The notes under the pieces were generated by a model that saw nothing but the letters and a program-made list of their open reading frames with translations, ran no database searches and was not told the DNA's origin. Below, piece after piece: positions 32,843-56,510 of a stretch of DNA of 63,142 bases (the first letter of the stretch is position 1; each line of letters opens with the position of its first letter). Where the stretch lies: positions 1 through 63,142 of the forward strand of contig JAGUWJ010000022.1 in assembly GCA_020062425.1 (NCBI GenBank), read 5' to 3'. The position numbers and the translations under genes are program-made. Origin of the DNA: Actinomycetota bacterium. GTDB lineage: Bacteria > Actinomycetota > Geothermincolia > Fen-727 > Anoxymicrobiaceae.

Positions 32843-35800
32843 CTAACCAGACTGCGGTAAGTCCATGAGGGTGAACTCAAAGCAGGCGCCGTTGTCGTTA
32901 TAAGCCGTGATGGTCCCCCTGTAGAGGGTGACCACCTTCTCCACCGTGGCCAGGCCTATTCCGGTCTCACCTTCCTTCTTCGAGAAGAAGGGCAGGAAGA
33001 TCTTGTCGATGTCACCAGGATCTATACCCGCCCCGTTGTCACGGACCAGGTACTTGTGAAGACCTTCCCCGGTACGCCCCAGGTAAGATACGATAACTTC
33101 CGGCTTCCGGCTGTCGTTGTGCTTTATGGCGTTCCCAATGAGATTACTGAACAGCTGGTACATGTGGGTCTTGTTGGCCGACACCCGGCCCAGGTCCGAG
33201 TCATACTTCAGCTTGACCCTCCTCTCCTTGATGGGCCCGGCCTTTTCGTCAGCGATCCTTTTTACAATGGTTTCTATGTCGACGTCGCTGACATCCCACG
33301 GCTTTTCGCCGGCCTGCGCCAGCTGGAGCAGGCCGTTTATCATCGCCGTGCTCTTCCTGACGTTCGCCTCGATGATGTCGATGAGCTCTCGGGCGTCGCG
33401 CTTGGCGGCCTCGTCCTGGGGTCTCTCCAGTACCTCGCGCAGTGACAGGCCGGCGGCCTGCATGGACGCGAGCGGCCCCTTGAGGTCGTGAGACACCATG
33501 TGCGCGTATCCCTCGAGCTCCCTGTTCATCACCAGCATCTCGTGCTCGGCCCTCTTGCGCCCGGTGATGTCTCTGGTGATGGTGATGAAGCTGGTCGGGT
33601 TTCCGTTTTTATCGCGAATGACCGAGGCGCTGGTCTCCACCATGAACTCGGTGCCGGTCATGGACCGTACCTTGAACTCCCTGACGTTCGTACCTTTTTC
33701 CAGCAGCTCCTGCATCGAAGCCTGGGCCTCTTCACGGTTTCCCGGCTCGACGAGGGTCAGGCCGCTCATTCCTCTGAGCTCTTCCAGGTCGCTGTACCCG
33801 AAAAGGTCAAGCGTCGCCCGTGAGGCTTCGACTATGTTGCCCTCCAGGTCGGTCACCACCACGGCGTCGGGGGATGTATATAACAGGCTGCGGTACAGAG
33901 CCTCCGACTGCTGGAGCTTCTCCTCGGCCTTCCTGCGCCTGGTGGCGTCCCGCACGACGGCAGCGTAGTTATTCTCGCCGGATATCTTCCAGGTGGAGCG
34001 GGAGAGTTCCATGGGGAATAAGGTGCCGTCTTTCCTGAGACCGGTCATCTCGAGAACATTTCTGGGTATAGGCTCCTCACCGCCGCTCTCTCGCATCATC
34101 GAGCCTAGTCGGGACTCCCTGTCGCCCTCCGGCAATATCGAGACCAGGGGCTTGCCGAACATCTCCTCGGCGGAGTGCCCGAATATCTGCTCGGCCCCCG
34201 GGTTCCAGAAGATGATCTCAAGGTTACTGTCGGCGCAGATGACCGCTTCCAGTGCGCTCTCGGCCATCGAGCGAAAGCGTTCCTCGCTACTCCTCAGCAT
34301 CTCCAGGCGGCGGCTGTCACGCAGGGCGACCGCGGCGATCTCACCGAAGGCCGACGCCATCATCGCGTCCCTCCCGGAGAAGCCGCCCTGCTTGTTCGCC
34401 AGCATGAAGATGCCCGCGGGGTCGCCCTCCACCAGGAGCGGGGCTACCAGCACGCTCTCGACCTTGAAGTGATCCTCGGGCAGGCCTTCCTCGATGCCGG
34501 TCTCCTTGACCGCGTTGTCGTAGTAGGCCTTTCCCGCCTTGAGTTCCGGAGTGATCAATGCCTCCACCGGCATCCTGGCCAGAGGACCCAAGCTACCCTT
34601 AAGCCTGTCCGGCTCGCAGAAGAGCATCCTTCCCTCACCCGTATCCTCTTCAAGCAGGATGACGCAGCCCGCCTCGGCTCCCACCAGCTTGTGGCAGAGG
34701 GTGAAGATCTCTCTCGCCGAATTCTCGAAGTCCTTGTGCTCGAGGACCAGCCGGGTGCTTTCCAGCAGGGCGGTGATCTCCTCCCTGCGCTCGTTGGTTT
34801 CCCTTATGACGTTGTGCAGGGCTTCGTCCGCCCGCTTCCTATCGGAGATGTCTCTCCCCAGGCCGGTTATCCCCACGGGCGTACCGTCGCTGTCCCGTAT
34901 CAGTGAGAGGGTTAGCTCGAAAGGAATCCTCCTGCCGTCCTTGGTTATCAGTTCCAGCTCCATCTTGCGGATCCCACCGGTCTGGGCCACGTGTTCAAGA
35001 GAAGCAGTAAGGCGAAGGTAGTTCTCCGGCGAGAGGAAGTCGAACGTCCTCATGGCGTCGATCTCCTCGTCTGTATAGCCGGTGACCTCACACAGGCTGC
35101 GGTTCCACTTGTTGAAACTGCCCTGAAGGTCCGCGACAACTATTATGTCGGGAACCGCGTTGAGAGCGTCCATGGTGAATGCCCTCTCGTCCGCAAGTGC
35201 CTTCTTGGATATCTTCCGTTCGCTCAAGTCTCTGACAGCCACCACATAACGGACGCCCTTCCTGGTGATGACTTCTTTCGCTCTGACCTCGACGGGGATA
35301 GTGCGCCCGTCCTTGGTCAGGTTCTCGGATTCCACGGCGCTGCCGGCAAGGAGCCTGCCGACGACTTCTCCGAATCCCTCGCGCTTATCCTCCGGGAGCA
35401 GTTCCATCGCCGACGCGCCCTTGATCTCCTCAGCCTCATACCCGAGCATCCTGCACGCCGCTTCGTTCACGTCCTCGATCCGGCCTTCCACAGTCTCCAC
35501 GAAAAGCGCGTCCGCGGACTCGTTGAAGAGCGTACGGTAGAAAGCCTCGCTTTCCCTGATGGCCTCTACGGCCTTTGCGAGCACGTAATCGTGGAGAGCC
35601 CTCTCTACAGCAACGGGGAGGGCAGCCGCCAGCTTGTCGTTCTTGACGATGTAACCTGCTGCCCCCTGCTGGAAAGCCAGCGAAGCGACGTCCTCGTCGC
35701 CGCGGCCTGTCACCACTATGACGGGGGGGTGCTGTTCGGCGGCGGTTATCTCAGGCAGCAGGTCGAACCCGAAGCCGTCAGGGAGCTGGTAGTCCAGGGT

Positions 35801-35971
35801 TATCAGGTCGTATGCGGAGGAGCGTATGCGCTCGCGGGCGTTCTCGAGGCTCGGAGCGATATCAACACGAGCGGCGCTCTTGAGCTCGAGAAGCTGCTTC
35901 AGGATATCCGCGGTCTCGGGCTCATCCTCGATTACCAGAACTCTAGGGCTTCCGTCCGGCTCCTGTCTCAC
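32843..35971 (-). CDS. hybrid sensor kinase: N-terminal receiver, multiple PAS domains, GAF, HisKA-HATPase
   Basis: 1042 aa, GTG start. VLVIEDEP...LITLDYQLPDG receiver. Repeated PAS-type segments. H-box VSHDLKGPL. DNGAGI and GIGLATV G-boxes. Confidence 0.9.
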   Translation of the reverse strand: MRQEPDGSPRVLVIEDEPETADILKQLLELKSAARVDIAPSLENARERIRSSAYDLITLDYQLPDGFGFDLLPEITAAEQHPPVIVVTGRGDEDVASLAFQQGAAGYIVKNDKLAAALPVAVERALHDYVLAKAVEAIRESEAFYRTLFNESADALFVETVEGRIEDVNEAACRMLGYEAEEIKGASAMELLPEDKREGFGEVVGRLLAGSAVESENLTKDGRTIPVEVRAKEVITRKGVRYVVAVRDLSERKISKKALADERAFTMDALNAVPDIIVVADLQGSFNKWNRSLCEVTGYTDEEIDAMRTFDFLSPENYLRLTASLEHVAQTGGIRKMELELITKDGRRIPFELTLSLIRDSDGTPVGITGLGRDISDRKRADEALHNVIRETNERREEITALLESTRLVLEHKDFENSAREIFTLCHKLVGAEAGCVILLEEDTGEGRMLFCEPDRLKGSLGPLARMPVEALITPELKAGKAYYDNAVKETGIEEGLPEDHFKVESVLVAPLLVEGDPAGIFMLANKQGGFSGRDAMMASAFGEIAAVALRDSRRLEMLRSSEERFRSMAESALEAVICADSNLEIIFWNPGAEQIFGHSAEEMFGKPLVSILPEGDRESRLGSMMRESGGEEPIPRNVLEMTGLRKDGTLFPMELSRSTWKISGENNYAAVVRDATRRRKAEEKLQQSEALYRSLLYTSPDAVVVTDLEGNIVEASRATLDLFGYSDLEELRGMSGLTLVEPGNREEAQASMQELLEKGTNVREFKVRSMTGTEFMVETSASVIRDKNGNPTSFITITRDITGRKRAEHEMLVMNRELEGYAHMVSHDLKGPLASMQAAGLSLREVLERPQDEAAKRDARELIDIIEANVRKSTAMINGLLQLAQAGEKPWDVSDVDIETIVKRIADEKAGPIKERRVKLKYDSDLGRVSANKTHMYQLFSNLIGNAIKHNDSRKPEVIVSYLGRTGEGLHKYLVRDNGAGIDPGDIDKIFLPFFSKKEGETGIGLATVEKVVTLYRGTITAYNDNGACFEFTLMDLPQSG

Positions 35972-36151: not shown

Positions 36152-36715
36152 CTAGAAGACCCCGGCAGCCATAAGTATGCCAAAGACGATGAACAGTACT
36201 CCTGAGATCCAGCGGATGTACCTGAACGGAACCACCCTGGCAAGCCCCTCCCCGGCGATGGCGCCGATGAACGAGGTGAGCCAGAGGGCCAGGGTTCCTC
36301 CAATGAATACGAATAAGGGGTAGCCGTACCGGCCGCTTAGCGCAATTAGAGCGAGCTGGGTCTTATCGCCCAGTTCCATGAGTGAGACAACGAGCAGCGC
36401 AGAGATGAAAGGCGAGCGGGAGGCCTTTCTCTCCGCTTGAGGCTTCTCTTCCTCCTCACCTCTGAAGGAGAGCACACCGAAAATAATGAACACTGCCGCG
36501 GCTACGTAGCGTATCACATGCTCCGGGACGTACCGGGCGACCACCGCTCCCACGGTCACCGCAAATGCGTTCAAGACGGCGAACGCCACACCGGCGCCCA
36601 GGAATACCGGCAGGTAGCCGTAGCGAGCCGACATGGCCAGTATCGCTATCTGGGTCTTGTCCCCCAGTTCGGCGACGAATGTTAGTCCGAATGCAGCTGC
36701 CAGAGCTTTTATCAC
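36152..36715 (-). CDS. GDT1/TMEM165 (UPF0016) family cation (Mn2+/Ca2+) transporter
   Basis: Two ELGDKTQ motifs in an internally duplicated 6-TM protein. GTG start. Confidence 0.85.
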   Translation of the reverse strand: MIKALAAAFGLTFVAELGDKTQIAILAMSARYGYLPVFLGAGVAFAVLNAFAVTVGAVVARYVPEHVIRYVAAAVFIIFGVLSFRGEEEEKPQAERKASRSPFISALLVVSLMELGDKTQLALIALSGRYGYPLFVFIGGTLALWLTSFIGAIAGEGLARVVPFRYIRWISGVLFIVFGILMAAGVF

Positions 36716-36769: not shown

Positions 36770-38497
36770 TCAGGCGCCGGCAGCTGGGTAGTCGAACAGT
36801 GTGAACTCGAAGCACGCCCCTCCGTCGCAAAAGGCGGTGATCTCGCCGCCGTACAGCTCCACCACTTTCTTGACTGTCGCGAGTCCTATTCCGGTGTCGC
36901 CGGTCGACCCCTCCTTGAAAAAGGGGATGAAGATCCGTTCCATGCTCTCTGGCGGGATGCCCGGGCCGTTGTCTCTGACCAGGTAGCGGTGCCCACCCGG
37001 ATCGACCTCCCCGAGGTAACGGATGGTGATCCGTGTCTTGTCGCTCAAACCGTGCCTGAGCGCGTTCCCGATGAGGTTGGTGAAGATCTGGTACAGGTGG
37101 GTCTCGTTCGCCACAACCGTTCCCATGTCGTCGTCGCAGAGGATTTCGACGTTATATTCTTCGAGGAAACCCCGCCTCTCGTCGAGCACGGCGTCGACCA
37201 CGGTTCTCACAGGCACCGGTGAGAGGTCAGTCGGCTCGAGCTCCGCCTCTGCGAGGGCCAGCAGGTCGTTTACCATGGACACCGACCTTCCAACGTTCCT
37301 GGATATGATGTCGCCGATTTCCTCTAGGTCATGGTCGACCGCCTCGCTGCGGGGCTCGGCCAGAAGGTCTCTCATGGTCTCTACGGCAAGCACGAGGGCG
37401 CTCAGGGGGCCTTTGAGGTCGTGCGAGACAGTGCGCGCGAAACCGTCCAGCTCAACGTTTGCCAGTTCCAGCCTGGCGTATGTGCGGGCGTTTGCGACGC
37501 CTAGCCCGCACACCGCAGCCAGCGTACGGGCCATGCTCTCGTAGTGATCGATATACTCCGGGAATGCCACCCTCCTCGCCGAGAGGATTCCCAGCAGTTC
37601 GTCACCGTGTGCTATGTCGATGTCGAACCCCGAGCGGGTGCCGGACGGGGTCTCGTCCGCGAGCGGTTCGATCTCGACGCCATCGGGCAGCGAGTACGTC
37701 CTCTCCGTCCTGCCGGACGAGACCACCGCGTACCCCACCCGCTCAGGGGCTATCAGCATCACGAAGAGTTCGATTATCTTCTCAATCACGCGCTCCTCAC
37801 CGCTGATCTCGGCGAGGGGGCCGATGAGGTCGAAGACCATCTCGTAGTCCGCGGTGCGCCTCGAGACCGTGGACAGGGCTTTTCGTGACGCGCTCTCCTG
37901 CTTCTCCAGTCGCCACTCGAGGTCGAGCCTCGTGAGGAAGAGGCCGAGGTAGTCGAGTCCCACCTGTAGCACTTCGAACGGTACCCCGACGAACTCGGAA
38001 AAAGAGGCGAGGTTCGCAGAAGCCGTCGGGTCGACACCTGTATCGAGAAGCACGAGCTTCGATGTGGACTCCTGGAAGAACTGCCGGGCGGTCTCCCGGT
38101 CGAATTCCCAGAACTCCATGTATTCTTTCCATTTGGTCAGCCATCCAGGCGTGAGCAGGTAGGCTCCCTCTGATAAGGACCTGTCGAGAAGGCTGGGGTT
38201 GACGAGGATGTTGAAGCACTGCTCCTGACAGCGGATCCGCCAGCGCTCGGGAAGGTCGCCGGCGCAGGCCAGCCCCGCCAGGCACTGCCCGCCCACGATG
38301 AACACGCGCTCGCAGCCGTCGTCCACGACGATGTCCAACCTGGCCACGCCGTGAGTCGTCACAGGGGGGCATGGGCGCTCTAGTTCATAAGACTGGACCG
38401 AGATACTGTCGAGGCCCGCGGACTCAGCGGCCCGGGCGACCTCTTCCGCCAGGTGTTCGCAGACGACGACGCAGTACTGCTCAGACGCCATACTCAT
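36770..38497 (-). CDS. histidine kinase with an N-terminal DUF1638-like domain and a central GAF-like region
   Basis: N-terminal VVVCEHL..., FIVGGQCLAGL, CFNIL, and YLLTPGWL resemble the DUF1638 consensus as I recall it. H-box VSHDLKGPL. DNGPGI and GIGLATV. The ATG (38497 or 38491) lies inside the end of the preceding gene. Confidence 0.8.
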   Translation of the reverse strand: MSMASEQYCVVVCEHLAEEVARAAESAGLDSISVQSYELERPCPPVTTHGVARLDIVVDDGCERVFIVGGQCLAGLACAGDLPERWRIRCQEQCFNILVNPSLLDRSLSEGAYLLTPGWLTKWKEYMEFWEFDRETARQFFQESTSKLVLLDTGVDPTASANLASFSEFVGVPFEVLQVGLDYLGLFLTRLDLEWRLEKQESASRKALSTVSRRTADYEMVFDLIGPLAEISGEERVIEKIIELFVMLIAPERVGYAVVSSGRTERTYSLPDGVEIEPLADETPSGTRSGFDIDIAHGDELLGILSARRVAFPEYIDHYESMARTLAAVCGLGVANARTYARLELANVELDGFARTVSHDLKGPLSALVLAVETMRDLLAEPRSEAVDHDLEEIGDIISRNVGRSVSMVNDLLALAEAELEPTDLSPVPVRTVVDAVLDERRGFLEEYNVEILCDDDMGTVVANETHLYQIFTNLIGNALRHGLSDKTRITIRYLGEVDPGGHRYLVRDNGPGIPPESMERIFIPFFKEGSTGDTGIGLATVKKVVELYGGEITAFCDGGACFEFTLFDYPAAGA

Positions 38498-39542
38498 CGA
38501 CCCAGTCGAGCGGGTAGCTGCCCCATTTCCTGGCGGCCTCAGAAACGGCGAAGAGCACTTCGTCGGGTACCTGGAACGGTATCTCACCATGGTTGTCGGC
38601 GAGTATGAAGCCACCCCCCTGGCCGGCCCCGGCGATAGCCTCCTTCACAGCGCTTTCAGCCTCTTCATGGGTCCACCTGCGCATCTCGATGCCGTTCAGA
38701 TTGCCCAGGATGGTTATCCTGCCTGAGCAGGCCGCTTTCAACAGCCTGATGTCCTCCAGCGCGCTGACGCCGACCACAGCAGCACCCGATGCGATGATAT
38801 CGTCTATTATGGGCAGGCACCGCCCGGATGCCAGATGTATGGCCAGGGGACCGTTTGCCCGTTCGGTCACGCGACTGGCTATCTCATATCCGGTCTCGAG
38901 GTACAACTCCCGGGGGATGATGGTCCCTGACGAAACAGGGTCGAAATAACCTATAGCTGTCGCGCCCGCGTCCAGCTGGGCGTTGACCCACTCGACATGG
39001 AACTCTTGGTTGACCTCCATCAGCCGCCAGAACAGCTCGCGGTCCTCGTAGATGAGGTCCAGGTAGCTGTCGAATCCCATCTGCATGACGGGAAGGGAGA
39101 ACGGCGATATGGCCGCCGCGATTACAGGAGCCTCGTCTCCCACTTCTGACTTGAGTAACTCAATAGCCCGCAGGCTTTTCTGCAGGACGGGGCTCTCGCT
39201 AACCCTGGGAGGTTCTAGACTCGTTATATCGGAGCGTTTTCTGATGATGGGCTCCCCGGCATTCGGAGGCCCGTCGTCGAAGAACAGCACCTCTCCACCC
39301 CAGGCTTCCACCTCCGCCGCAGCGTAGAACAGCGGGTAAACGCAGTCGTGGCCGTACCTGGCCCGGAGACGCATCTGGCCTTCGACCACGTTCTCCGGGC
39401 GCGAGAAGTACTCGGCGAGTGACATCCCGAGCTCCTTCGCGCCGTGCATGGTGAGGAACAGGAAGAGGGGCACGCGGTCGGGTTCGTTGTGCCCCAACGT
39501 TGTCAGGGTACGCTCGAGCGAGGTTGTAGACGGCTGATCCAT
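38481..39542 (-). CDS. uroporphyrinogen-decarboxylase-fold methyltransferase (MtaA/MtbA-like corrinoid methyltransferase)
   Basis: 354 aa. URO-D family layout (PDRVPLF..., AISPFSL, IHLASG...). The ATG overlaps the stop of the corrinoid protein gene (TGATG). The ORF opens at 39626. Confidence 0.8.
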   Translation of the reverse strand: MDQPSTTSLERTLTTLGHNEPDRVPLFLFLTMHGAKELGMSLAEYFSRPENVVEGQMRLRARYGHDCVYPLFYAAAEVEAWGGEVLFFDDGPPNAGEPIIRKRSDITSLEPPRVSESPVLQKSLRAIELLKSEVGDEAPVIAAAISPFSLPVMQMGFDSYLDLIYEDRELFWRLMEVNQEFHVEWVNAQLDAGATAIGYFDPVSSGTIIPRELYLETGYEIASRVTERANGPLAIHLASGRCLPIIDDIIASGAAVVGVSALEDIRLLKAACSGRITILGNLNGIEMRRWTHEEAESAVKEAIAGAGQGGGFILADNHGEIPFQVPDEVLFAVSEAARKWGSYPLDWVDEYGV

Positions 39543-40183
39543 CACAGAGCTCCGTTCAACTCTGTCATCAGTCGCATCGCGTCGGATGCGTCGCGGCCCA
39601 TCGCGGAGGCCCCGACCTCTCTCCACAGCCTCTCGTCAAACAGGAACGGCGCGCCACCGACTATTATCCTGGCGCCCGAGCCGGCTTTTTTCAGCCCCGC
39701 CGCGAGAGCCTCGACCTTTAGTGCGGACCTCAACATAAGTGTTGAGACCAGGAGCACCTCGATACCGTCCGCGACCGATCTCTCCACCAGTTTATCCGCG
39801 GTGATTCCGTGTCCGTAGTCGGTGAGCTCGTAGCCTGACGCCCTCAGAGATGAATAGACGATCCTCTTTCCCAGCGCGTGGTGATCTTCGAGGGCGGCGA
39901 TTGCGGTGACCGGCTGCCTCTTTCTCTTCTCGTCGGCGGGGGGAAGGAAGGTGTCGACCAGCTCCTCGCAGATCCGGCCGCTCATGTAGACCTGCGACAG
40001 GGCGACGTCGCCGCTCTCCCATGCATCGCCTATCCACTCCAGAGCAGGCACTATGGTCTGTTCTACGACTTCGATAGGGGACATACCTTCGTTCAGCAAC
40101 TCGAGGATGTCAGATGCCCTGGCCCGGTCGATTGTGAGCAGGGCTCTTTCGAACTCCTCCACGGAGTCTTTGGACCGCGTCAT
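39542..40183 (-). CDS. cobalamin-binding corrinoid protein (B12-binding cap plus Rossmann domain)
   Basis: 213 aa. Helical cap domain, then EDHHALG (DxHxxG lower-ligand loop), SxL (LVSTLM), and GG (IIVGGAP) motifs. Confidence 0.85.
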   Translation of the reverse strand: MTRSKDSVEEFERALLTIDRARASDILELLNEGMSPIEVVEQTIVPALEWIGDAWESGDVALSQVYMSGRICEELVDTFLPPADEKRKRQPVTAIAALEDHHALGKRIVYSSLRASGYELTDYGHGITADKLVERSVADGIEVLLVSTLMLRSALKVEALAAGLKKAGSGARIIVGGAPFLFDERLWREVGASAMGRDASDAMRLMTELNGAL

Positions 40184-40281: not shown

Positions 40282-41739
40282 TCAGTAATCGATTCCACTG
40301 AAGTGCTTCCAGTCGAGCCTGGCACGGGCCCGCTCCAGGATGCGAGACCTGAGCCGCCCGGGCACCAACCTGGAGCCCAGGAACAGGTCGGTTACCTTTT
40401 CAGCCGCCCGGGCCAGTGGCCAGGGCAGCCTGAAGATCCTGCGGTAGGCGACCATCAGCAATACGAAGTTCTCACAGACCATCTCCACCTGGGCGGCCGT
40501 CATGCTGTCCAGCTCGAGCTGGGAGCGCCCCGAGAACAGGGTATCCAGAGACGCGTCTCCCAGCATATCCTCCTCTTCACATACTTTGTATATGCTGGTC
40601 TTGGGGAAGGGGCAGAGAGCTGTGACCTGTGCGAGACCGGGTTGGACGCGGGCGTTCATCTTCACGGTGTCGAGTGCCATGGAGAGGGTCTCGCGGGGGA
40701 AACCGGTCATATTCAGCGAGACGGTCGGGATGCCGTAAGACCTGCATAGCTCGAACGCCCTCTCTATCTTGCTGTCGTCCATGTCCCTGAGCAGCACTTT
40801 CTTCCTGAGCCATGTATTGCCGCTCTCGATCCCCATGGCTACCGCGCTGCAGCCGGCATCGGCCATGAGGGAGACCATCTCCTCGTTCAGGAGGTCCACG
40901 CGGGCATTGCAGATGAAGGGAAGCCCCACCTTTTCCTTGAACAGGGGCGCGAACTCCCTGAACCAGCGGCGGTCGAGAGTGAGGATGTCGTCCTCGAACC
41001 TCACATGGTCGAGCTCAGGCTCGTTCACCAGGGCCGCTTTTATCTCAGCGACAACGTTGCCGGGGGACCGGAAGCGCACGTAGTCCCGGCTGTTCGGGTA
41101 AATGCTCTTCTGGAGGTGGTTGCAGCAGTAGCTGCACTCGAACGGACAGCCGCGCGAGGCCATCACCGATAGCCGGGTCCTCTGGTTGGCGGCGAACTTC
41201 TCCTTGTTGAAGATGCTCCTGTCGGGGAACGGCAGTTCGTCCAGATCCCTTACCAGCGGCCTGACAGGGTTAGAGAACGTTCTCCCGTCGCCGGCGCCCC
41301 AGAGGCCGGCTATCCCGTCCGTGGGTCGGCCGGACTCGAGCGAGTCGCACAGCTCGAGGAGGGTCACTTCACCCTCACCCACGCAGACATAATCGATCCC
41401 GGGGACCTCGACGACCTCCTCAGGGCATATCGTGGGGTGCACCCCACCACATACCTTCGGCATCTGAAGTACGCCATCCATCCACGAGCAGAGCATCCGC
41501 ACCTTGGGGAACTGAAGTGTGGTTGCGGAGAACGCTACCAAATCGGGCTCCGTACCCCCGACCTCTTCGAGAAAAGATTCTCTTTCCGGAGGCCTGGTGA
41601 AGTGAATGAGCTCGGTCCGGTGGCCGGCCTGCTTGAGGAACGCCGAGAGGTAACCGATTCCCAGGTAGACTCGGCCCTGCGACTCCTCGATGAGATCCTG
41701 AGTCTCGAAGTAATCCGTGTATACGAAAGTTACTTTCAC
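40282..41739 (-). CDS. B12-binding domain radical SAM protein (class B)
   Basis: 485 aa. N-terminal B12-binding Rossmann (DLVAFSATT, VCGGVHPT). CPFECSYC radical SAM cluster motif. Confidence 0.9.
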   Translation of the reverse strand: MKVTFVYTDYFETQDLIEESQGRVYLGIGYLSAFLKQAGHRTELIHFTRPPERESFLEEVGGTEPDLVAFSATTLQFPKVRMLCSWMDGVLQMPKVCGGVHPTICPEEVVEVPGIDYVCVGEGEVTLLELCDSLESGRPTDGIAGLWGAGDGRTFSNPVRPLVRDLDELPFPDRSIFNKEKFAANQRTRLSVMASRGCPFECSYCCNHLQKSIYPNSRDYVRFRSPGNVVAEIKAALVNEPELDHVRFEDDILTLDRRWFREFAPLFKEKVGLPFICNARVDLLNEEMVSLMADAGCSAVAMGIESGNTWLRKKVLLRDMDDSKIERAFELCRSYGIPTVSLNMTGFPRETLSMALDTVKMNARVQPGLAQVTALCPFPKTSIYKVCEEEDMLGDASLDTLFSGRSQLELDSMTAAQVEMVCENFVLLMVAYRRIFRLPWPLARAAEKVTDLFLGSRLVPGRLRSRILERARARLDWKHFSGIDY

Positions 41740-41741
41740 TC

Positions 41742-42755
41742 CTATTCCGCTTCCCGAGCGGGCTTGACCCCGGCGAACGCCCCCACCATCAGAACAGCGA
41801 GCCCCAGCACAAGGAGGCCAAGGGGGATGTAGACGAATTGCAGCTTGAGCTTGGATACCTCTTCGCGGGCGAAGGCGCTCATCGTCTTTACGCTCTCCCT
41901 GGTCTGCTTGTACTCGAGGGTGTAGAGCGCCCTGCTCAGGAGGAGGTTCCCGCCCGCATCCTCGACCGCCAGAGTAACGGTATCACGCCCTGAGGAGGTT
42001 TCTACTATGGTGCCCATCCTGGGCTCGACCTTGAGCAGGGTATCCTGGCTGCACCTGTATTCGGGCTTTACCTCCACATCGTCATCGACCGCCACGTCGC
42101 TCATTTCCAGCCACTCTTTCAGCGGTGCTCCCTGAATGGTTTCAGGATAACCGCGGGGCGTAGCGGCGGCGGGCCGGTCCGCGAAAGACATCGAAAAGCG
42201 GTATGTAGCGAGCCCTCCCGCGAAGGTCTTTCCCTCGAACTCCGCAGGAAACGTCGCTCCGGCAAGCTCGCTCCAGAGCGGGACGCTGCTTCGGGGGGTG
42301 TTGAATGGGAAGACGATGAAGTACCCCGAGCGTTCCCGGTCGGCGAGATCGCTCTTCACCTGCTCCCCCGTCCTCCTGTCGACCGCGTATGTGTGCTCCC
42401 CCTCGGAGATGAGCTGCCCCGACGCTGAATCGTAGATGCTGGTCTCGGCTTTGAACACTGCCGTCTGCGCCGTGGATACCAGGGGCTCGCTCCGCACCGT
42501 CTTGGTTATGCCCACGCTTGCCCGCGACGGTGGCGCGCCGGGGACCTGTCTATCCGGGGGGTTCACGAAGTAGGTCAGAACACCCTCGTACTGAAGCACC
42601 TGCTCCATGTCGGTGGCCACAACCTTGAGCGCGGGGGCTACCGCGAATCTCCAGATCGGGGCCACGAGTATCAGTGCGATGCCGGCCGCGACCAGCAGCA
42701 GGTTTGCCCTCATGCGCTTCACGGCGCGCCATCTCTTCTGGAGGATGTTTAACAC
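41742..42755 (-). CDS. DUF3068 (PorA-family-named) bitopic membrane protein
   Basis: An N-terminal TM helix (LLLVAAGIALILVAPIW) followed by RFAVAPALK, and a C-terminal TM helix (IPLGLLVLGLAVLMVGAF). An alternative start is ATG 42713. Confidence 0.6.
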   Translation of the reverse strand: MLNILQKRWRAVKRMRANLLLVAAGIALILVAPIWRFAVAPALKVVATDMEQVLQYEGVLTYFVNPPDRQVPGAPPSRASVGITKTVRSEPLVSTAQTAVFKAETSIYDSASGQLISEGEHTYAVDRRTGEQVKSDLADRERSGYFIVFPFNTPRSSVPLWSELAGATFPAEFEGKTFAGGLATYRFSMSFADRPAAATPRGYPETIQGAPLKEWLEMSDVAVDDDVEVKPEYRCSQDTLLKVEPRMGTIVETSSGRDTVTLAVEDAGGNLLLSRALYTLEYKQTRESVKTMSAFAREEVSKLKLQFVYIPLGLLVLGLAVLMVGAFAGVKPAREAE

Positions 42756-43442: not shown

Positions 43443-45713
43443 ATGTACCAGTCTGTCAGACTCCGAGTAAATCGCCGCGAACAGTCAGGATTGCTTCACC
43501 GAAAAAGGCTAAAGTTCTTTGCCACTATAGCCGATGCACATGAACGACGCAGGACTAGGGGGCAGGTTTTGGCGCAGAGAGACTGGTACTTCATCTGCTT
43601 CGGGTTAACAGCGGTTGTCGCGTTGAGCTGCTGGATTCTCGCGATAGTTGTTTACCGCAACAACAGGAAACAGTATCTCAATCGGTCTTTCGCGCTCATG
43701 ATGCTGTTCCTGGGATTGTGGGTCCTTGCGGGGTTCGCTGAGAGGCTGCCCTCGACACCAAACGACGCATTCACACTGTGGGTATTCAGGTGGGCGTATG
43801 CGAATGGCACCATGCTCTCGATCTGCTTCCTTCTCTTCGGTATCACTCTCTATCTCGATCGCGCACCAAAGAAAGTATTAACGGGAACATTCCTGGGCTT
43901 CAGCGCCGTTATTTCTATTCTCTGTTTCTCCCCACTGATCATTCATTCCGCGACATTACGGAACGGTGTTCTGGTAACGAAATTTGGTCCTTTGTATCCG
44001 CTCAATGCGTTGGTGATCCCATTCGTCAGTATCACCAGTATCTATCTCATTGCCAAGAAATGGTCACATTCCGCCGGCATTGATAGGGCTCGCTCCAGTG
44101 TTGTGCTCTTGGGCTTCGTCATATTTGTTCCTTTCTGCATGGTTTCGGCTCTCGTGTTGCCTGTAGTTTTAGGCAGTGATGCAAGCAGCGGGTACGCTTT
44201 TATAACCGCTGTAATTCCGGTGGGATTCCTCTCATATGCGATTGTCCGCCTGCGCCTGCTTGACACGCGCATAATCCTTCGAAGGACGACGGTTCTTCTG
44301 CTCACTGCACTTGTCTTCTCGGTTCCTCTTGCGTTGCTCTTCGTGATTATCGAACTTGCCAGCCCCTCGAAGGGGGTACAATATCTCGCCGTATTTGCGC
44401 TTTTCATCCTTGTTATGATCTTCGCCCAGGACGTGATGAAGCGCCTTCACGTCCTTTCGGCCAGACTCTTCTTTTCTGGCTTGTACGATGAGGTCCAGCT
44501 CCTCGAAGAAGTTTCAGATACCCTTAGCGCCGAATCCGAACCGAACAAGAGCCTCGAGGCAGGGCTCTCCCATCTGGTCGCACCCCTTGGCGTGGATAGT
44601 GTGGGTCTGATGATACCTCCTGGTGTGGTCAACGGGAGCTGCTGGTACTTCAAGGCGTTTCAGACGCTTGACGGACCGGTTGATTGTGAAGTCGACTACA
44701 ACGCGGAGTTCCTGTGCTGGCTTGGAGCGGTAGAAGGTACAGTTGTGACTGAAGAAGTCACGCGCTGGCCCAGAAACGAGCAGGAGGAGAACCTGGGAAG
44801 GTGCATGGCCGCAAAGGATCTTTGCGCCTGCCTCCCGGTAAGGATATCTGAAGAGCGGATAGGGTATCTGCTTATCGGAAACAAGATCAACGAGAAGGCG
44901 CTTTCCTCGACAGACATCTCACTTCTGGAAAAGACGGCGGAGCGTATCGCTGTGTTCATCGACAACTATGGACTCTCTTCCAGGCTGGCCAGTCAGCTTA
45001 ACGAGCTCCAGCAGGTATACAGCGATCTTCATCAGGCCTACGACTTCAAATCTGAGATAATCCAGGTGGCATCTCATGAGTTCAGGACGCCCATCACCGT
45101 AATAGATGGCTTTGTGCATACACTGGTATCAAATTGGGATTCGATTTCCGAGGAGGACAAGGCCGAATATCTTACCAGCATCCTTGTGGCCAGTAAGAGG
45201 CTGGTCAACCTGACGGATAAGTTCCTTGATATCTCGAAGCTGGAGAACGGGAATAAAAGTGTGGTCAAGGTACCGACCAAGCTCAGCGCCATCGTTCAGA
45301 CAACGTTGTCGGACATAACTGATCAGGATATTGGGCGGATTCTTGTAGAGGGCAATCCCGAGCTGTACATATCATGCGACCCGGAGCATTTACGGATGAT
45401 GCTGGAGAACCTGGTTGAGAACGCGCTTCGCTTCAGCCCCCCGTCGAAGCCCGTGATGCTGAAGGTATGGCGTGACAGCACCATGATATACATCCAGGTA
45501 CAGGATTTCGGGAAGGGTATTCCCCTTGCGGAGAGGGAAAGGGTTTTCGAGCCGTTCGTACGTCTGGAGACATTGGAGAACCATTCAAGAGGAATGGGGC
45601 TCGGCCTGCACATCGTCCGCCTGTTGTCCTCTCGGCTCGGCATAGAAGTTGAGATCGATTCAGGGGAAGGAAGGGGAACCACGGTAACCCTCTGTCTCGG
45701 GCAGGAATATTGA
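43443..45713 (+). CDS. sensor histidine kinase with an N-terminal polytopic (7TM-type) domain and a GAF-like region
   Basis: 756 aa. About seven hydrophobic helices in the first 330 aa. H-box ASHEFRTPI. ENLVENALRF, DFGKGIP and GMGLGLHIV. Lower GC than the flanks. Confidence 0.85.
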   Translation: MYQSVRLRVNRREQSGLLHRKRLKFFATIADAHERRRTRGQVLAQRDWYFICFGLTAVVALSCWILAIVVYRNNRKQYLNRSFALMMLFLGLWVLAGFAERLPSTPNDAFTLWVFRWAYANGTMLSICFLLFGITLYLDRAPKKVLTGTFLGFSAVISILCFSPLIIHSATLRNGVLVTKFGPLYPLNALVIPFVSITSIYLIAKKWSHSAGIDRARSSVVLLGFVIFVPFCMVSALVLPVVLGSDASSGYAFITAVIPVGFLSYAIVRLRLLDTRIILRRTTVLLLTALVFSVPLALLFVIIELASPSKGVQYLAVFALFILVMIFAQDVMKRLHVLSARLFFSGLYDEVQLLEEVSDTLSAESEPNKSLEAGLSHLVAPLGVDSVGLMIPPGVVNGSCWYFKAFQTLDGPVDCEVDYNAEFLCWLGAVEGTVVTEEVTRWPRNEQEENLGRCMAAKDLCACLPVRISEERIGYLLIGNKINEKALSSTDISLLEKTAERIAVFIDNYGLSSRLASQLNELQQVYSDLHQAYDFKSEIIQVASHEFRTPITVIDGFVHTLVSNWDSISEEDKAEYLTSILVASKRLVNLTDKFLDISKLENGNKSVVKVPTKLSAIVQTTLSDITDQDIGRILVEGNPELYISCDPEHLRMMLENLVENALRFSPPSKPVMLKVWRDSTMIYIQVQDFGKGIPLAERERVFEPFVRLETLENHSRGMGLGLHIVRLLSSRLGIEVEIDSGEGRGTTVTLCLGQEY

Positions 45714-47923: not shown

Positions 47924-47999
47924 GGGCCCATAGCTCAGTTGGCAGAGCAGCGGACTCATAATCCGCGTGTCGCAGGTTCGAGTCCTGCTGGGCCCACCA
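47924..47999 (+). tRNA. tRNA with anticodon CAT (elongator Met or lysidine-modified Ile2)
   Basis: A 76-nt cloverleaf: acceptor GGGCCCA/TGGGCCC, D arm GCTC-AGTTGGCA-GAGC, anticodon arm GCGGA-CTCATAA-TCCGC, T arm GCAGG-TTCGAGT-CCTGC, and an encoded CCA. Confidence 0.9.
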
Positions 48000-48089
48000 A
48001 CGGTTTTCCGCATGGGCATGGGCTTTGAGCATACCAGGCAAGACCCGCGGTCCGGGGGAGCTTGTATCGGTGTGCCGCTCTGGTGCCGC

Positions 48090-49199
48090 TCACTTCCGCC
48101 GGGAGGCCCTGAAATGGGTGACCCGATTGTCCGCTATAAGCGCGTCAATCCGTGACTCGATTCCCTGGTCCACGGAGGGCAAGAGGTGGCCGTAGCGGTC
48201 TAGCGTGGTGGTGATGGAGGCGTGGCCCATTCGCTCCTGGAGAACCTTAGGATTGCAGTTGAGGGAAATCATCAGGGCGGCGTAAGTATGGCGGAGGTCA
48301 TGGAATCGGACGCGGCGGAGCCCGGCGCGCTCCAGCGCGGGGTGAAACTCCCGGGCTATCATGTTCGAGAAGTTGACCGGCTTGCCGGCGCGGTTGCGGT
48401 AAATCAGGTCAGACGGCTTCTGGCCTGTCGGTCGGTGCGCCTCGAGCTCCTCAGCCAGGAGCGGGGAGATCGGGACGGCCCGGACCCCGCGCTTGCTCTT
48501 CGGGGAAGAGAACCCGTACTCCGGATGGTATGACCGCCGAATGTATATCACCCCGCGCGCCTGGTCATAATCACTCCAGCGCAAAGCCAGGAGCTCGCCT
48601 TGCCGGGCCCCGGTCAGGACGGCCATGGCGAACAGGGCGCGGTATTCAGGACTGGCCGCGTCGAGGAGCCTGGCCACTTCATCAGGTCTGAGGTAGTCCA
48701 TCTCTCGGTGCGGAGCTTGAGGGAGCTCGACGAATCGGGTGGGATTCTGCTGGACGTACCCCCAGGCCTCTGCTTTCTTCATCATGGACTTGAGGACGGC
48801 GAGCGTCTTGCTCACGGTCCTGGGGGAATATCCCGCGCGGATTTTCTCCGCCACGTATGATTGCACTACATCGGGAGTGATGTCCTCCAGGGGGCCAGAG
48901 AAGAACGGGGCCAGGTGGTTCCTCGTCACCTCGCGGTAGTCTTTCAGGGTGCTGGGTTTCAGGCCCTTGACGCTTGCGTAGTCCTCGAGCCAGCGCTCTG
49001 CCAGGTCGGAGAAGGTCACGCTCCTGGGCCTGCCGAAGGTGCCCTCGGCCAGCTCGGCGCTCGCCGCGCGGAGACGGGCCTCGGCGTCCTTCTTGCGAGC
49101 GAACCCGCCCAGATTCTTGGCGCGACCGCCCACGCGCGCCACGGCATAGTATCTGACCGCCCCGGACGGGAGGACCCGGCGCCTTATATGCCCGGACAT
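48090..49199 (-). CDS. int: tyrosine recombinase, phage integrase
   Basis: 369 aa. An N-terminal SAM-like domain. Catalytic region TGARQGELLALRW, HDLRHTYA, and GHASITTTLDRYGH. Confidence 0.95.
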   Translation of the reverse strand: MSGHIRRRVLPSGAVRYYAVARVGGRAKNLGGFARKKDAEARLRAASAELAEGTFGRPRSVTFSDLAERWLEDYASVKGLKPSTLKDYREVTRNHLAPFFSGPLEDITPDVVQSYVAEKIRAGYSPRTVSKTLAVLKSMMKKAEAWGYVQQNPTRFVELPQAPHREMDYLRPDEVARLLDAASPEYRALFAMAVLTGARQGELLALRWSDYDQARGVIYIRRSYHPEYGFSSPKSKRGVRAVPISPLLAEELEAHRPTGQKPSDLIYRNRAGKPVNFSNMIAREFHPALERAGLRRVRFHDLRHTYAALMISLNCNPKVLQERMGHASITTTLDRYGHLLPSVDQGIESRIDALIADNRVTHFRASRRK

Positions 49200-49564
49200 C
49201 AGCGTTTCTTTTTCTCTTCCTGGAGCTTCTTCGAGGTCCGACCGAGCCGCTTGGTGGCCTTGTATTTCACCAGCGTCATCACCTCGTCGATGTCCTCCTG
49301 GACGATGCCCGGGTAATTCTCGAGACAGTTGCGGAGCTCCATGTCAGATGATGGGCCACCGCCCCTGCTGTCCATGGGTACGCCCAGAATCTCGAAGTGC
49401 ATGACCTCTGCCACCTGGATTAATGCATCCAGTCCCGGGCTACCGCCCCGCAGATAACGCGAGAGAGAAGATTCGGAAATCCCCAGCAGTATCGCGAACT
49501 CCTTTTGAGTCATGCCGAACTCCTCCATCCTCTCACGAAGCCAACGAGCAAAGTCAAATCCCAT
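49199..49564 (-). CDS. XRE-family HTH protein, CI-like repressor
   Basis: MTQKEFAILLGISESSLSRYLRG HTH. ATG 49564 follows GGGGGTGG. The ORF opens at 49585. Its stop overlaps the int start. Confidence 0.75.
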   Translation of the reverse strand: MGFDFARWLRERMEEFGMTQKEFAILLGISESSLSRYLRGGSPGLDALIQVAEVMHFEILGVPMDSRGGGPSSDMELRNCLENYPGIVQEDIDEVMTLVKYKATKRLGRTSKKLQEEKKKR

Positions 49565-49585
49565 TATCGCCACCCCCGCGTACAT

Positions 49586-49720
49586 ATTTCAACGGAATTC
49601 TCACTGAGTAGCATCTCATAAACCTGGAATCCCGTGGCAAAAATGCAGGATTCTATATTGACAATGCCGAATTCCTAATGTAGAATCTGACACGGTTACA
49701 ACCAACAGGGAGAAGCGCAA
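49586..49720. promoter_or_regulatory. divergent lysogeny-switch promoters with repeated GGAATYC-type motifs
   Basis: Plus strand: TTGACA (49658-49663), 17 nt, TAGAAT (49681-49686). Minus strand: TTAGGA (49678-49673), 17 nt, TAGAAT (49655-49650). The ATTCTA/TAGAAT inverted repeat brackets the -35 box. Confidence 0.5.
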
Positions 49721-49957
49721 GTGGGGAACCTCGAGTCAGACATCAAGCCCAAGCGAAAAGCTCAAGACATCAACCTCAGAGAGCTTGAGCAGTTGACCGG
49801 GATAAACCGGGGAGAGCTTTCACGGATAGAGCGCGGTCGGCTGGTCTATGACGAGAGGCAGAAACGACTCATAGAGGAGGTGCTAGGGGAGGTCGCCATG
49901 TGGGCGCTCGAAGAGAGAGACGGCCTTCTGGTGAGAATCCCCATCAGGCCAGCATGA
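49721..49957 (+). CDS. XRE-family HTH protein, Cro-like
   Basis: 78 aa, GTG start. INLRELEQLTGINRGELSRIERG HTH. Divergent from the CI-like gene. Confidence 0.7.
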   Translation: MGNLESDIKPKRKAQDINLRELEQLTGINRGELSRIERGRLVYDERQKRLIEEVLGEVAMWALEERDGLLVRIPIRPA

Positions 49958-50277
49958 AACTTATCACCGCTAAAGAACTCGCGGAACTCATGAGCATCCC
50001 TGTCGGGACCGTGTGGGCCCTGGCGCGAGAAGGCCGCATCCCGCACTACCGGACGGGGAACATCCTGCGCTTCGATGCGGAAGAGGTCCTGGGGACCATC
50101 CGCAACGGCAACGGGGGGAGAGATGAACACGACGGAAGCGAGAAGGACGAAGGCGACGGCGGAGTTACTTCTGGAGGTGCAGGCTATCGACATGGAAGTG
50201 GCCGGTCTGTTGCGGCGCCTGTTGGTCTTGATGCAGGAGCATTGGAATCTGCTCCGCGAGGCCCAGGCCACGAATGA
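49954..50277 (+). CDS. excisionase-type (MerR-like) HTH DNA-binding protein; the C-terminal tail is doubtful
   Basis: MKLITAKELAELMSIPVGTVWALAREGRIPHYR... ATGA junction with the cro-like gene. After about residue 60 the third-codon-position GC drops sharply. Confidence 0.6.
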   Translation: MKLITAKELAELMSIPVGTVWALAREGRIPHYRTGNILRFDAEEVLGTIRNGNGGRDEHDGSEKDEGDGGVTSGGAGYRHGSGRSVAAPVGLDAGALESAPRGPGHE

Positions 50278-50290
50278 CGAAAGGGGGTGA
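50123..50290 (+). CDS. hypothetical 55-aa helical protein (overlaps the tail of the previous ORF in another frame)
   Basis: ATG follows GGGGGGAGAG. Third-position GC is about 80 percent by hand count, against about 30 percent in the competing frame. Confidence 0.5.
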   Translation: MNTTEARRTKATAELLLEVQAIDMEVAGLLRRLLVLMQEHWNLLREAQATNDERG

Positions 50291-50294
50291 TCGA

Positions 50295-50534
50295 ATGCCA
50301 ATAGCTACAAGGACTCATGCGAACGGGAAGATGGCCTCTCTCTACATCGTCAATGACGAGCGGTTCAACTACTACCCGATAGTAGAGGTCAGCGTCTATG
50401 ACTGGCGGGACCACGGGGCCGGGGTCAAGGTCGTCGTTGAGCCCAGGGTCGAGGGCGTGAAAGTCGAGGTTGTGGACCTGGCAGAGGTCCTAGCCGACGA
50501 CGAGAGACAGAGAAGGGAGGCGGCGAATGCTTGA
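50295..50534 (+). CDS. hypothetical phage protein
   Basis: ATG 50295 follows AAGGGGGTGAT. An alternative ATG is at 50274. No family recognised. Confidence 0.5.
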   Translation: MPIATRTHANGKMASLYIVNDERFNYYPIVEVSVYDWRDHGAGVKVVVEPRVEGVKVEVVDLAEVLADDERQRREAANA

Positions 50535-51285
50535 CCATCTATCACCATCACAGATGTCGATGTGGGGGCGCTGTCAGGTCCAGTGGTACTTCCGTTATGT
50601 CGAGGGCCTGAAGATACCGCCGAGTGTGTCCATGGCCCAGGGTTCGGCCATGCACGAGGGGGCGCGGTTCAAGTTGGCCGCTCGGGTGGAAGGTGCGGAG
50701 GAGCCCTCCGACAGCGACACGGAAGAGTACATCGTAAACGAATTCGAGGAGGCCGGGAGAAAAGGCCTGGACCTGAAGGAGGGGGACGACCTCGGCAAGG
50801 CCAAGGACGAGCTCACCGCCTGTGGCAAGGTCCTCCTCGAAGAGTCCCTCCCGGACATCACGACACCCACAGCAAGTGAGAAAAGATACGACCTGAATCT
50901 GGAAGATAGAGACGTTGGCCTGGTGGCGATTACGGACGTTGAGGAGGAGGGCCGAGTTAGAGACTTCAAGCTGACCTCTAAAACACCCGACCCCCTCTCC
51001 GAGCTACAGCCTGTAGTCTACACCTACTGCCGGTGGCAGGAAACCGGGGAGGTCCCGGACTTCACCTATGAAGTGGTGAAGAAGCTCAAGACCCCAAAGC
51101 TTGAGCGGGTAAACCACCGGTGCACAGAGGCCGACATCAACTTCTTCTTCGCACAATTCGACGCGGCGGTGTTCCAGATGAAGCACGCAATCGAGGCCGG
51201 CAACTTCGTCCCCAACCCCTGCGGTTGGTGGTGCTCGGAGTCCTGGTGCGGTTACTGGAACCATTGCCGAGGCAAGGGGGTATGA
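50527..51285 (+). CDS. PD-(D/E)XK exonuclease, Cas4-like with a Cys cluster
   Basis: An N-terminal Cys (WGRCQVQWYF). Core acidic motifs (ITDVEEE..DFK). C-terminal CGWWCSESWCGYWNHC. Confidence 0.7.
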   Translation: MLDHLSPSQMSMWGRCQVQWYFRYVEGLKIPPSVSMAQGSAMHEGARFKLAARVEGAEEPSDSDTEEYIVNEFEEAGRKGLDLKEGDDLGKAKDELTACGKVLLEESLPDITTPTASEKRYDLNLEDRDVGLVAITDVEEEGRVRDFKLTSKTPDPLSELQPVVYTYCRWQETGEVPDFTYEVVKKLKTPKLERVNHRCTEADINFFFAQFDAAVFQMKHAIEAGNFVPNPCGWWCSESWCGYWNHCRGKGV

Positions 51286-51288
51286 CAG

Positions 51289-51999: not shown

Positions 52000-52126
52000 A
52001 CACCTGGCGGTAGAAACGGACTTCCTGGTCCTCTGTCTCAGGTGGGACGAATACGTCACCGCCGAGGACTGTCAGGAATGCCCCGACTACTCGGAAGTCA
52101 CGGAGGAGGTGGCCCGTGAGAACTGA
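51989..52126 (+). CDS. hypothetical 45-aa Cys-containing protein
   Basis: ATG 51989 overlaps the erf end. MACKHLAVETDFLVLCLRWDEYVTAEDCQEC... Confidence 0.4.
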   Translation: MACKHLAVETDFLVLCLRWDEYVTAEDCQECPDYSEVTEEVAREN

Positions 52127-53451: not shown

Positions 53452-53456
53452 GAACA

Positions 53457-54175: not shown

Positions 54176-54176
54176 T

Positions 54177-55789: not shown

Positions 55790-55790
55790 G

Positions 55791-56278: not shown

Positions 56279-56510
56279 CTTCGCGACCAGGTTGACCGCG
56301 ACGAATTCCGCGCGTAATCTCAAGGTGAGTCATAGTCGAAGCCCCCGCCTGGGGGCTTCACCCTTTCGCCACCCCAACGGTGACAGGGACCTTCTCACTT
56401 GCTGAAGGCCGGGCACGTACCAGCCCGGCCAAAGAACACAATCGTTGCGCCCCCTCGCAACGTCGGAAGAGCGGGGGCCCCAGGTCCCCGCCTTCCACCT
56501 TAAAGGAACC

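Follow-up and report, generated by a model that had tools for sequence, protein, structure and literature searches.

A DUF1638–GAF module heads a histidine kinase and other bacterial signalling proteins and is encoded beside corrinoid and URO-D-family genes

Among sensor kinases linked to methyl-transfer metabolism, MsmS and RdmS sense through PAS–GAF modules whose GAF domain carries out heme or thiol redox chemistry, are not known to contain a DUF1638 domain and control catabolic methylsulfide methyltransferases. DUF1638 itself is known from bacterial genetics. In Phaeobacter inhibens, B12-dependent methionine synthesis requires a stand-alone DUF1638 protein, encoded beside a B12-binding protein, to which the authors could assign no function (PMC5764234), and the distribution of DUF1638 proteins of this type tracks that of a RamA-like activase (PMC5764234; echoed in PMC12478193). 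These genetics tie DUF1638 functionally to corrinoid proteins, and the domain has had a phenotype but no function since 2018. Here we describe a DUF1638-containing histidine kinase encoded within a 63,142-nucleotide stretch of DNA (contig JAGUWJ010000022.1 of assembly GCA_020062425.1; hereafter the window) from an actinomycetotal bacterium of the family Anoxymicrobiaceae, together with the genes for a corrinoid protein and a URO-D-family protein that precede it. The kinase had been singled out in an earlier note made from the DNA letters, which proposed that its sensor module looks like DUF1638 and that this would give the domain a signalling context.

The DUF1638–GAF module and its output domains

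The Pfam DUF1638 model (PF07796) matches residues 61–184 of the kinase (E = 8.3e-11; 42.5 bits against a gathering cut-off of 27), the match covering positions 27–157 of the 161 in the model. The four conserved blocks by which the earlier note had recognised the domain are all present in the order that it gave, namely YCVVVCEHLAEEV (residues 8–20), ERVFIVGGQCLAGLA (residues 63–77), RCQEQCFNILV (residues 89–99) and AYLLTPGWLTKW (residues 111–122). An AlphaFold2 model of residues 1–345, built from 119 homologues (predicted local distance difference test, pLDDT, 93.1; predicted template-modelling score, pTM, 0.80), agrees with this assignment of the N-terminal part. It comprises a seven-stranded, two-lobed α/β domain, a helix spanning residues 182–230 and a second α/β domain formed by residues 231–344. 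The DUF1638 domain was also modelled separately, with a pLDDT of 91.5.

When the model of residues 1–345 was compared with the PDB using Foldseek, only the second domain found matches, which were to the GAF domains of DosS, KdpD, PDE5 and NlhH (probability 1.00; target template-modelling, TM, scores of 0.5–0.66). The structure model thus confirms a GAF fold for the segment that had been called GAF-like from the sequence, though the Pfam scan of the kinase gave no match to a GAF family at E ≤ 0.01. Six residues of this domain (E234, P251, Y256, G290, Y319 and R338) are the same in all of 22 diverse relatives, and its last helix is long and heads, in the model, towards the dimerisation helix of the kinase.

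For the DUF1638 domain alone, Foldseek returned nothing from the PDB at E ≤ 1e-3. Its best match was a weak one to the N-terminal domain of PrpR (2pju; E = 3e-3, probability 0.96, TM 0.39, root-mean-square deviation of ~10 Å), followed by periplasmic-binding-protein and LacI-type bilobed folds, and a profile search of the PDB with the family alignment matched only the kinase and GGDEF C-terminal parts, leaving the DUF1638 part unmatched. Because the best match is this weak, DUF1638 is, as judged from the model, a domain without a solved structure and not a common named sensor fold. The two outcomes that the earlier note had listed as counting against its assignment, an absent DUF1638 match or a fold of that common kind, were looked for with Pfam and Foldseek and neither was found.

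Four cysteines of the domain, Cys13, Cys41, Cys72 and Cys94, are 91–100 % conserved across the family. In the AlphaFold2 model of the window protein, Cys13, Cys43, Cys72 and Cys94 each lie at the C-terminal end of one strand (β1–β4), and the second lobe carries the near-invariant motifs TPGWL..W and LLDTG. This pattern suggests a cofactor, metal or partner-binding site that would face the cleft between the lobes.

In the window protein, the module leads into a histidine kinase core that had been called canonical, and this description holds. Pfam places HisKA at residues 351–419 (37.1 bits against a cut-off of 26.9) and HATPase_c at residues 464–567 (80.3 bits against 26.4), and all of the kinase motifs are intact: H359, the N box (N474–N478), the G1 box (D509–G513), the F box (F523–F527) and the G2 box (G536–L539). 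Kinase cores in the PDB match the protein at 1e-18. Since these boxes are intact and the Pfam scan gave no membrane-associated domain, the gene product looks like a functional soluble class-I histidine kinase; the kinase core itself is ordinary. The full open reading frame (ORF) spans 36770..38614 on the minus strand, with in-frame ATG codons at 38497 and 38491. The preceding URO-D-family gene has its stop codon at 38483–38481, giving an overlap of 17 nucleotides (nt) with the first of these starts or 11 nt with the second. As relatives such as loci L001 and L002 show the same 11-nt overlap, ATG 38491 is the likelier start, and the resulting 573-residue protein is identical to database entry P0001.

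Searching with residues 1–344 yielded 119 protein clusters, all of them ≤ 40 % identical to the query, in which DUF1638–GAF is joined to HisKA/HATPase_c, HisKA_2/HWE, GGDEF, HD-GYP, STAS, PAS or REC domains or to a short Cys-rich tail. One N-terminal module that stays constant while the outputs attached to it vary is a hallmark of sensory input, which makes DUF1638–GAF a putative input of this kind, swappable between outputs. The signalling context that had been proposed for DUF1638 is thereby extended well beyond the one kinase, to at least six kinds of output domain. Within 81 species-representative loci, in a census that rests on our own ORF calls and hidden Markov models (HMMs), the C-terminal parts contained HATPase_c (55), HisKA (43), REC (15), PAS (~12) and GGDEF (9). 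The idea that the DUF1638 kinase represents an unreported architecture survives in part: we found no description of it in the literature searched, but hundreds of DUF1638 and HisKA combinations are already annotated in databases.

The module is broadly distributed. An index-free search of 1.84 billion cluster representatives with the DUF1638 domain alone recovered 1,122 proteins at E ≤ 1e-3, and the best 150 of these are mostly 400–1,479 residues long with the domain at the N terminus. A scan of one genome per species found a relative of the module in 129 species, whose carriers include Anaerolineae, Desulfobacterota, Beggiatoaceae, Verrucomicrobiota, Rhodocyclales, Geomonas, Myxococcota, Acidobacteriota, Heliophilum, Poribacteria and Anoxymicrobiaceae, among others. 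The closest relatives of the window module, at < 40 % identity, come from Poribacteria, Anoxymicrobiaceae and Anaerolineae.

Members of ~420 residues (at loci L018 and L020, and proteins P0016, P0024 and P0032) end in the Cys-rich tail PICxxCKKIRDxxGxWxxxExYxxxHSxAxFSHGxCPxC, which also ends the GAF-only protein of locus L087 described below. These short tails match no family in the Pfam census of C-terminal parts, and a literature search on the tail motif (CKKIRD) found nothing relevant. The tail may be an uncharacterised, zinc-ribbon-like output.

Corrinoid and URO-D-family genes in a three-gene cassette

On the minus strand of the window, the corrinoid protein gene is followed by the URO-D-family gene and then by the DUF1638–GAF kinase, and the stop codon of the corrinoid gene and the ATG of the URO-D-family gene overlap by one base. 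The extent to which this order is conserved was measured with HMMs made from the window proteins, which were used to scan the ORFs of species-representative loci, 72 of which were informative in having a complete module and ≥ 1.8 kb of upstream sequence. In 65 of these 72 loci, the module is immediately preceded on its own strand by both a URO-D-family gene and a corrinoid protein gene; one further locus has the URO-D gene only. A median of 4 nt separates the end of the URO-D gene from the module's estimated start. The same corrinoid–URO-D–transducer order recurs in precomputed Pfam gene tables of unrelated contigs. Cassette homologues are 63–68 % identical to the window proteins for the URO-D component and 55–62 % for the corrinoid component, while the DUF1638–GAF modules are 36–39 % identical. 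By gene content and order, a three-gene cassette (B12-binding, URO-D-family, DUF1638–GAF) is widespread in bacteria and found in many phyla. Stand-alone DUF1638 proteins, in the case of those closest to the window domain, are likewise found in a corrinoid–URO-D–DUF1638 trio (locus L085, with a second trio in Geomonas at L032).

The genes that surround the cassette are those of signalling systems. REC, HisKA/HATPase_c and PAS are the families that recur in the 34 genes surveyed upstream of the corrinoid gene and the 52 surveyed downstream of the transducer, and a search begun from the URO-D side arrived at the same neighbourhood. The families listed for these 34 and 52 genes include no MttB/MtaB-type substrate methyltransferase, no pterin-binding methyltransferase and no RamA/DUF4445 activase. 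No DNA-binding regulator was consistently linked to the cassette, its listed recurrent neighbours being REC, histidine kinase and PAS proteins. GGDEF, HD-GYP or STAS outputs on the transducer argue that the corrinoid and URO-D genes are not simply its transcriptional targets.

Loci L087 and L088 depart from the usual layout. In a Thermodesulfovibrio metagenome-assembled genome (L087:6034–6726), the corrinoid and URO-D genes are followed by a gene for a 230-residue protein with a GAF domain of the family type, without DUF1638 and with the Cys-rich tail; it aligns to positions 201–337 of the module HMM at E = 2e-41. At L088:6141–9666, what comes after the corrinoid and URO-D genes is a series of repeated '23S rRNA intervening sequence protein' genes, and this cassette is seemingly degraded, the GAF part of the transducer being left only in two different reading frames.

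The corrinoid protein of the window resembles those of methyltransferase systems. The D100-x-H102-x-x-G105 motif that it carries is 99–100 % conserved across the cassette family. Of the NCBIfam models, 'methyltransferase cognate corrinoid protein' matches at 2.7e-22 and CarH at 1.9e-8; in the PDB, MtmC (3ezx) matches at 1.9e-15, alongside the trimethylamine corrinoid protein (7xcn), and the signalling protein 8j2w at 5.2e-8. The W-x9-E-H cap motif of CarH does not occur, as W55 is followed by V65-Y66 at the position of E-H. The protein is therefore closest to the methyltransferase type and not to the CarH type.

The URO-D-family protein scores 89.7 bits with the NCBIfam model TIGR01463 (MtaA/CmuA), whose cut-off is 235.4, and 67.6 bits with the MtaA model, whose cut-off is 400. 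We considered whether the gene might encode a true MtaA or a true HemE and rejected both, its scores being below the cut-offs of either. A phmmer alignment to MtaA (4ay7) reads H264-x-A266…H346, so that Ala266 occupies the position of the Cys of the MtaA H-I-C motif and His346 that of the Cys of P-G-C-G; these cysteines are presumably zinc ligands (His-x-Cys…Cys). Both replacements are conserved in 74 cassette homologues. An overlap of the kinase gene with an MtaA-like gene had been reported from the sequence: the overlap, of 17 or 11 nt, is real, but the neighbour is not a bona fide MtaA, given its scores below the NCBIfam cut-offs and the replacement of two presumed zinc positions.

The URO-D fold serves both tetrapyrrole-binding enzymes and corrinoid methyltransferases, and by this analogy it is plausible that the URO-D-family protein acts on the cobalamin of its partner. 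Its subfamily is very large and unusually conserved, with 3,966 matches at E ≤ 1e-20, of which the best 120 are all 62–69 % identical to the window protein. The closest homologues (P0247–P0365), where their source is named, belong to several phyla, and they bear automatic names only, 'uroporphyrinogen decarboxylase' or 'MtbA'.

Neighbouring genes and a candidate phospho-acceptor

The window contains only two REC domains, one of which belongs to the REC–PAS–GAF hybrid kinase encoded downstream of the DUF1638 kinase (Table 1) and the other to a small protein encoded at 13264–13770. The earlier note had remarked that no response regulator is adjacent; this is correct for the immediately adjacent gene, but the hybrid kinase is encoded by the second gene downstream, on that same strand. 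Its core shares 51 % identity with that of the DUF1638 kinase (E = 2e-76), compared with 27 % for another kinase of the window. Such closely paralogous cores suggest a shared phosphorelay or heterodimerisation, and the REC domain of the hybrid kinase is a candidate phospho-acceptor or partner of the DUF1638 kinase. In related loci, the downstream gene encodes a REC domain 23 times out of 52, frequently within a hybrid kinase, and locus L001 has a σ54-type response regulator downstream of the transducer. The GDT1-family transporter gene that separates the two kinase genes of the window does not belong to the recurrent downstream families listed for related loci.

Table 1. Coordinates of the kinase, its domains and the neighbouring genes discussed in the text
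Feature	Position	Strand	Basis and remarks
Predicted soluble class-I histidine kinase gene	36770..38497	−	ORF, start codons, Pfam; 575 aa (amino acids) from ATG 38497, 573 aa from ATG 38491
DUF1638 domain, residues ~6–181, bilobed α/β fold	37955..38482	−	Pfam, AlphaFold2 models, conservation
Connector helix, DUF1638 to GAF, residues ~182–230 (~49 residues)	37808..37954	−	DSSP on AlphaFold2 model
Family-specific GAF-fold domain, residues ~231–344	37466..37807	−	Foldseek, conservation
HisKA (dimerisation and histidine phosphotransfer, DHp) domain, phospho-acceptor His359	37241..37447	−	Pfam; H-box SHDLKGPL read in sequence
HATPase_c catalytic domain, N, G1, F and G2 boxes intact	36797..37108	−	Pfam residues 464–567; PDB kinase-core matches, e.g. 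HK853
URO-D-family gene, 353 aa from ATG 39542, translationally coupled to both neighbours	38481..39542	−	Pfam URO-D, E = 2e-51
Corrinoid protein gene (B12-binding_2 cap and B12-binding Rossmann domain)	39542..40183	−	Pfam; DxHxxG present
REC–PAS×4–GAF–HisKA–HATPase_c hybrid kinase gene, 1,042 aa, second gene downstream of the DUF1638 kinase	32843..35971	−	Pfam
GDT1-family cation transporter gene, between the DUF1638 kinase and the hybrid kinase	36152..36715	−	Pfam GDT1
B12-binding radical SAM gene, upstream of the corrinoid protein gene	40282..41739	−	Pfam, NCBIfam

Upstream of the corrinoid gene, the closest models to the B12-binding radical SAM protein are BchE, HpnJ and PhpK, all far below cut-off, and together with a gene for a PorA/PgfA-like envelope protein it spans 40282–42755 on the minus strand. 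Both genes were considered as members of the cassette and rejected, phmmer finding no homologue of either in the ORFs of loci L001–L084. A scan of 32.5–43.5 kb for promoters and terminators returned counts equal to chance expectation and did not delimit the operon.

Further along the window, a HisKA_7TM histidine kinase is encoded on the plus strand at 43443–45713. The 44–48 kb stretch has a G+C content of 0.53–0.55, compared with ~0.60 elsewhere, and lies just before a tRNA-Met gene and a prophage region. The segment from 47924 to 63142 opens with this tRNA-Met (47924–47999), followed by genes for a tyrosine integrase (48090–49199, minus strand), a PD-(D/E)XK nuclease (50527–51285) and a large terminase (58869–60251), and the GC skew is strongly positive from ~50 kb onwards. 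This segment looks like a prophage integrated beside tRNA-Met.

A proposed corrinoid-state sensor, its rivals and known systems

On top of the established domains and fold, the cassette with its spread over many phyla, the varied outputs and the signalling genes around it, we infer a docking step, the reading of a state, a Cys site and a phospho-acceptor, which could be arranged as follows. The URO-D-family protein would act on the cobalamin of the corrinoid protein, either through methyl transfer to or from it or through a change of cobalt ligand or redox state. DUF1638–GAF would then dock on the corrinoid protein, possibly through a metal or cofactor site that cysteines would form in the DUF1638 cleft, and the state of the corrinoid protein would be passed on as a helix movement through DUF1638–GAF and its long helices. 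This movement would switch autophosphorylation at His359, and the phosphoryl group would be handed to a REC domain, for which the hybrid kinase is the best candidate. Our belief and our doubt are about evenly balanced for the proposal as a whole, that the cassette is a three-protein sensor in which DUF1638–GAF reads corrinoid state and controls the kinase. A fuller version, in which a URO-D-family methyltransferase writes the presence of a methyl donor or acceptor, or redox poise, onto a dedicated corrinoid protein that DUF1638–GAF reads so as to drive two-component, cyclic di-GMP (c-di-GMP) or partner-switching outputs in many bacterial phyla, would be a chemosensor of a new kind; we offer it tentatively and with more doubt than conviction. 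As to what DUF1638–GAF senses, which we infer, the near-constant co-operonic corrinoid and URO-D genes fit the idea, put forward in the earlier note, that it is the corrinoid or methyl-transfer state.

Several observations weigh against this proposal. The patterns by which loci were selected include a GAF-specific motif, biasing the sample towards the fused clade. Three of the 72 informative loci have a corrinoid protein gene only, and another three (L019, L021 and L057) have neither a corrinoid nor a URO-D gene nearby. In the window kinase and its closest relative, the second conserved cysteine is at position 43, not 41, a shift of two residues. In the PDB search with the URO-D-family protein, HemE (4zr8, 1.2e-10) is about as close as MtaA (4ay7, 1.4e-8), and, with two of the three presumed zinc positions of MtaA replaced, methyl transfer by this protein is not assured. 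Finally, the GAF-only protein of L087 raises the possibility that DUF1638 may not be the only, or the main, reading head.

An explanation that needs no reading of the corrinoid protein would make DUF1638 a self-contained redox or metal sensor, with an Fe–S cluster or metal bound by the four cysteines, and the corrinoid and URO-D genes mere co-regulated clients that, for example, need reductive activation. The conservation of Cys13, Cys41/43, Cys72 and Cys94 (91–100 %) at the ends of consecutive β-strands of the model is typical of a cofactor site, the P. inhibens genetics connect DUF1638 with a RamA-like reductive activase (PMC5764234), and the three loci without nearby corrinoid and URO-D genes would be accommodated. 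However, ~90 % of loci keep the tightly coupled trio and no other client genes recur; GGDEF, HD-GYP and STAS outputs offer no obvious regulation of adjacent genes; and L087 retains corrinoid and URO-D genes with a GAF-only partner. We therefore regard this explanation as unlikely. The retention of GAF at L087 would in turn suit a different scheme, in which DUF1638 is a fused enzymatic or chaperone module for corrinoid maintenance, GAF is the true ligand sensor and operon regulation by the kinase responds to a small molecule that GAF binds. Small-ligand binding is common among GAF domains, this one is strongly conserved, with invariant E234, Y256, Y319 and R338, and at L087 it follows corrinoid and URO-D genes without DUF1638. 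In the fused proteins, however, DUF1638 is always N-terminal and is coupled to GAF by a long helix typical of signal-transmitting linkers, and the recurrent neighbours listed for the cassette are REC, histidine kinase and PAS proteins, with no consistently linked DNA-binding regulator; we would be quite surprised if this scheme proved right.

Light is another conceivable input. Here the small B12-binding protein would be a cobalamin photoreceptor, like CarH, AerR or the photoglobin–B12 bundles, and DUF1638–GAF would relay a change induced by photolysis. Lone proteins that combine a B12-binding_2 with a B12-binding domain, encoded beside genes for signalling, have been put forward as light sensors (PMC8717448). 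Some carriers are phototrophs, for instance Heliophilum, Viridilinea and Chloroflexaceae, and the corrinoid protein bears a weak likeness in the PDB to the cobalamin-binding signalling proteins 8j2w and 8j2y. That likeness is nevertheless exceeded by the one to MtmC (1.9e-15 versus 5.2e-8 for 8j2w), and in NCBIfam the protein is nearer the methyltransferase type than CarH (2.7e-22 versus 1.9e-8). The CarH motif W-x9-E-H is missing from it, the highly conserved URO-D partner would be left unexplained, and many carriers are anaerobes of sediment or groundwater, all of which renders a light sensor improbable.

If the corrinoid-state sensor is correct, the role of DUF1638 would be the state-specific recognition of corrinoid proteins. 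That kinases, cyclases, phosphodiesterases and STAS proteins all take DUF1638 as an exchangeable input suggests that it recognises or reads corrinoid proteins, and the cassette may represent a light-independent mode of cobalamin-based signal perception. Should the cassettes be sensory, their corrinoid and 'MtaA' genes would be no evidence of methylotrophy in the annotation of metagenomes. In the literature searched, the coverage of which is incomplete, we found no description of DUF1638 as a signalling input or of the three-gene cassette. Sensor kinases whose input depends on an accessory protein are known in kind, and there is a real chance that the mechanism underlying this one is new.

A close described relative, the stand-alone DUF1638 protein PGA1_c13340 of P. 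inhibens, belongs to the same Pfam family, is likewise encoded beside a protein that has a B12-binding_2 as well as a B12-binding domain and is likewise tied to corrinoid chemistry. In the window, by contrast, DUF1638 is fused through a long helix and a GAF domain to a histidine kinase, and the neighbours of cassettes of this type are signalling genes in place of the methionine synthase pieces and RamA-like activase of P. inhibens. Like the window kinase, MsmS and RdmS of Methanosarcina acetivorans are soluble kinases with a GAF domain, have corrinoid or methyltransferase genes as neighbours and are thought to report redox or methyl-transfer metabolism (PMC11784639, PMC6944256). In function, they and the cobalamin-based photoreceptor bundles come nearest to the window kinase, which belongs to neither group. 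The window kinase differs in being bacterial and in having a DUF1638–GAF input, with PAS absent in the Pfam scan, and its partner genes look like accessories of a sensor and not like a catabolic pathway.

Other systems share single components with the cassette. In CarH, AerR and the photoglobin–B12 systems (PMC8717448), a unit composed of a B12-binding_2 plus a B12-binding domain, with a non-catalytic partner domain, also feeds two-component or c-di-GMP outputs, whereas the B12 protein of the window is of the methyltransferase type, its partner is DUF1638–GAF and not a photoglobin or a MerR-type DNA-binding domain, and a URO-D-family protein is an obligate third component. MtaA, MtbA and their kin similarly pair a URO-D-fold gene with the gene for a DxHxxG corrinoid protein; the URO-D-family protein of the window, however, falls far below the MtaA/CmuA cut-offs and has Ala and His at the presumed zinc-Cys positions, and the families listed upstream of the cassettes include no substrate-specific methyltransferase or activase. 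The PrpR N-terminal domain and the periplasmic-binding-protein folds resemble DUF1638, through a weak match, in their two α/β lobes with a cleft, but DUF1638 has no sequence relationship to them and is set apart by a conserved set of cysteines that those folds lack.

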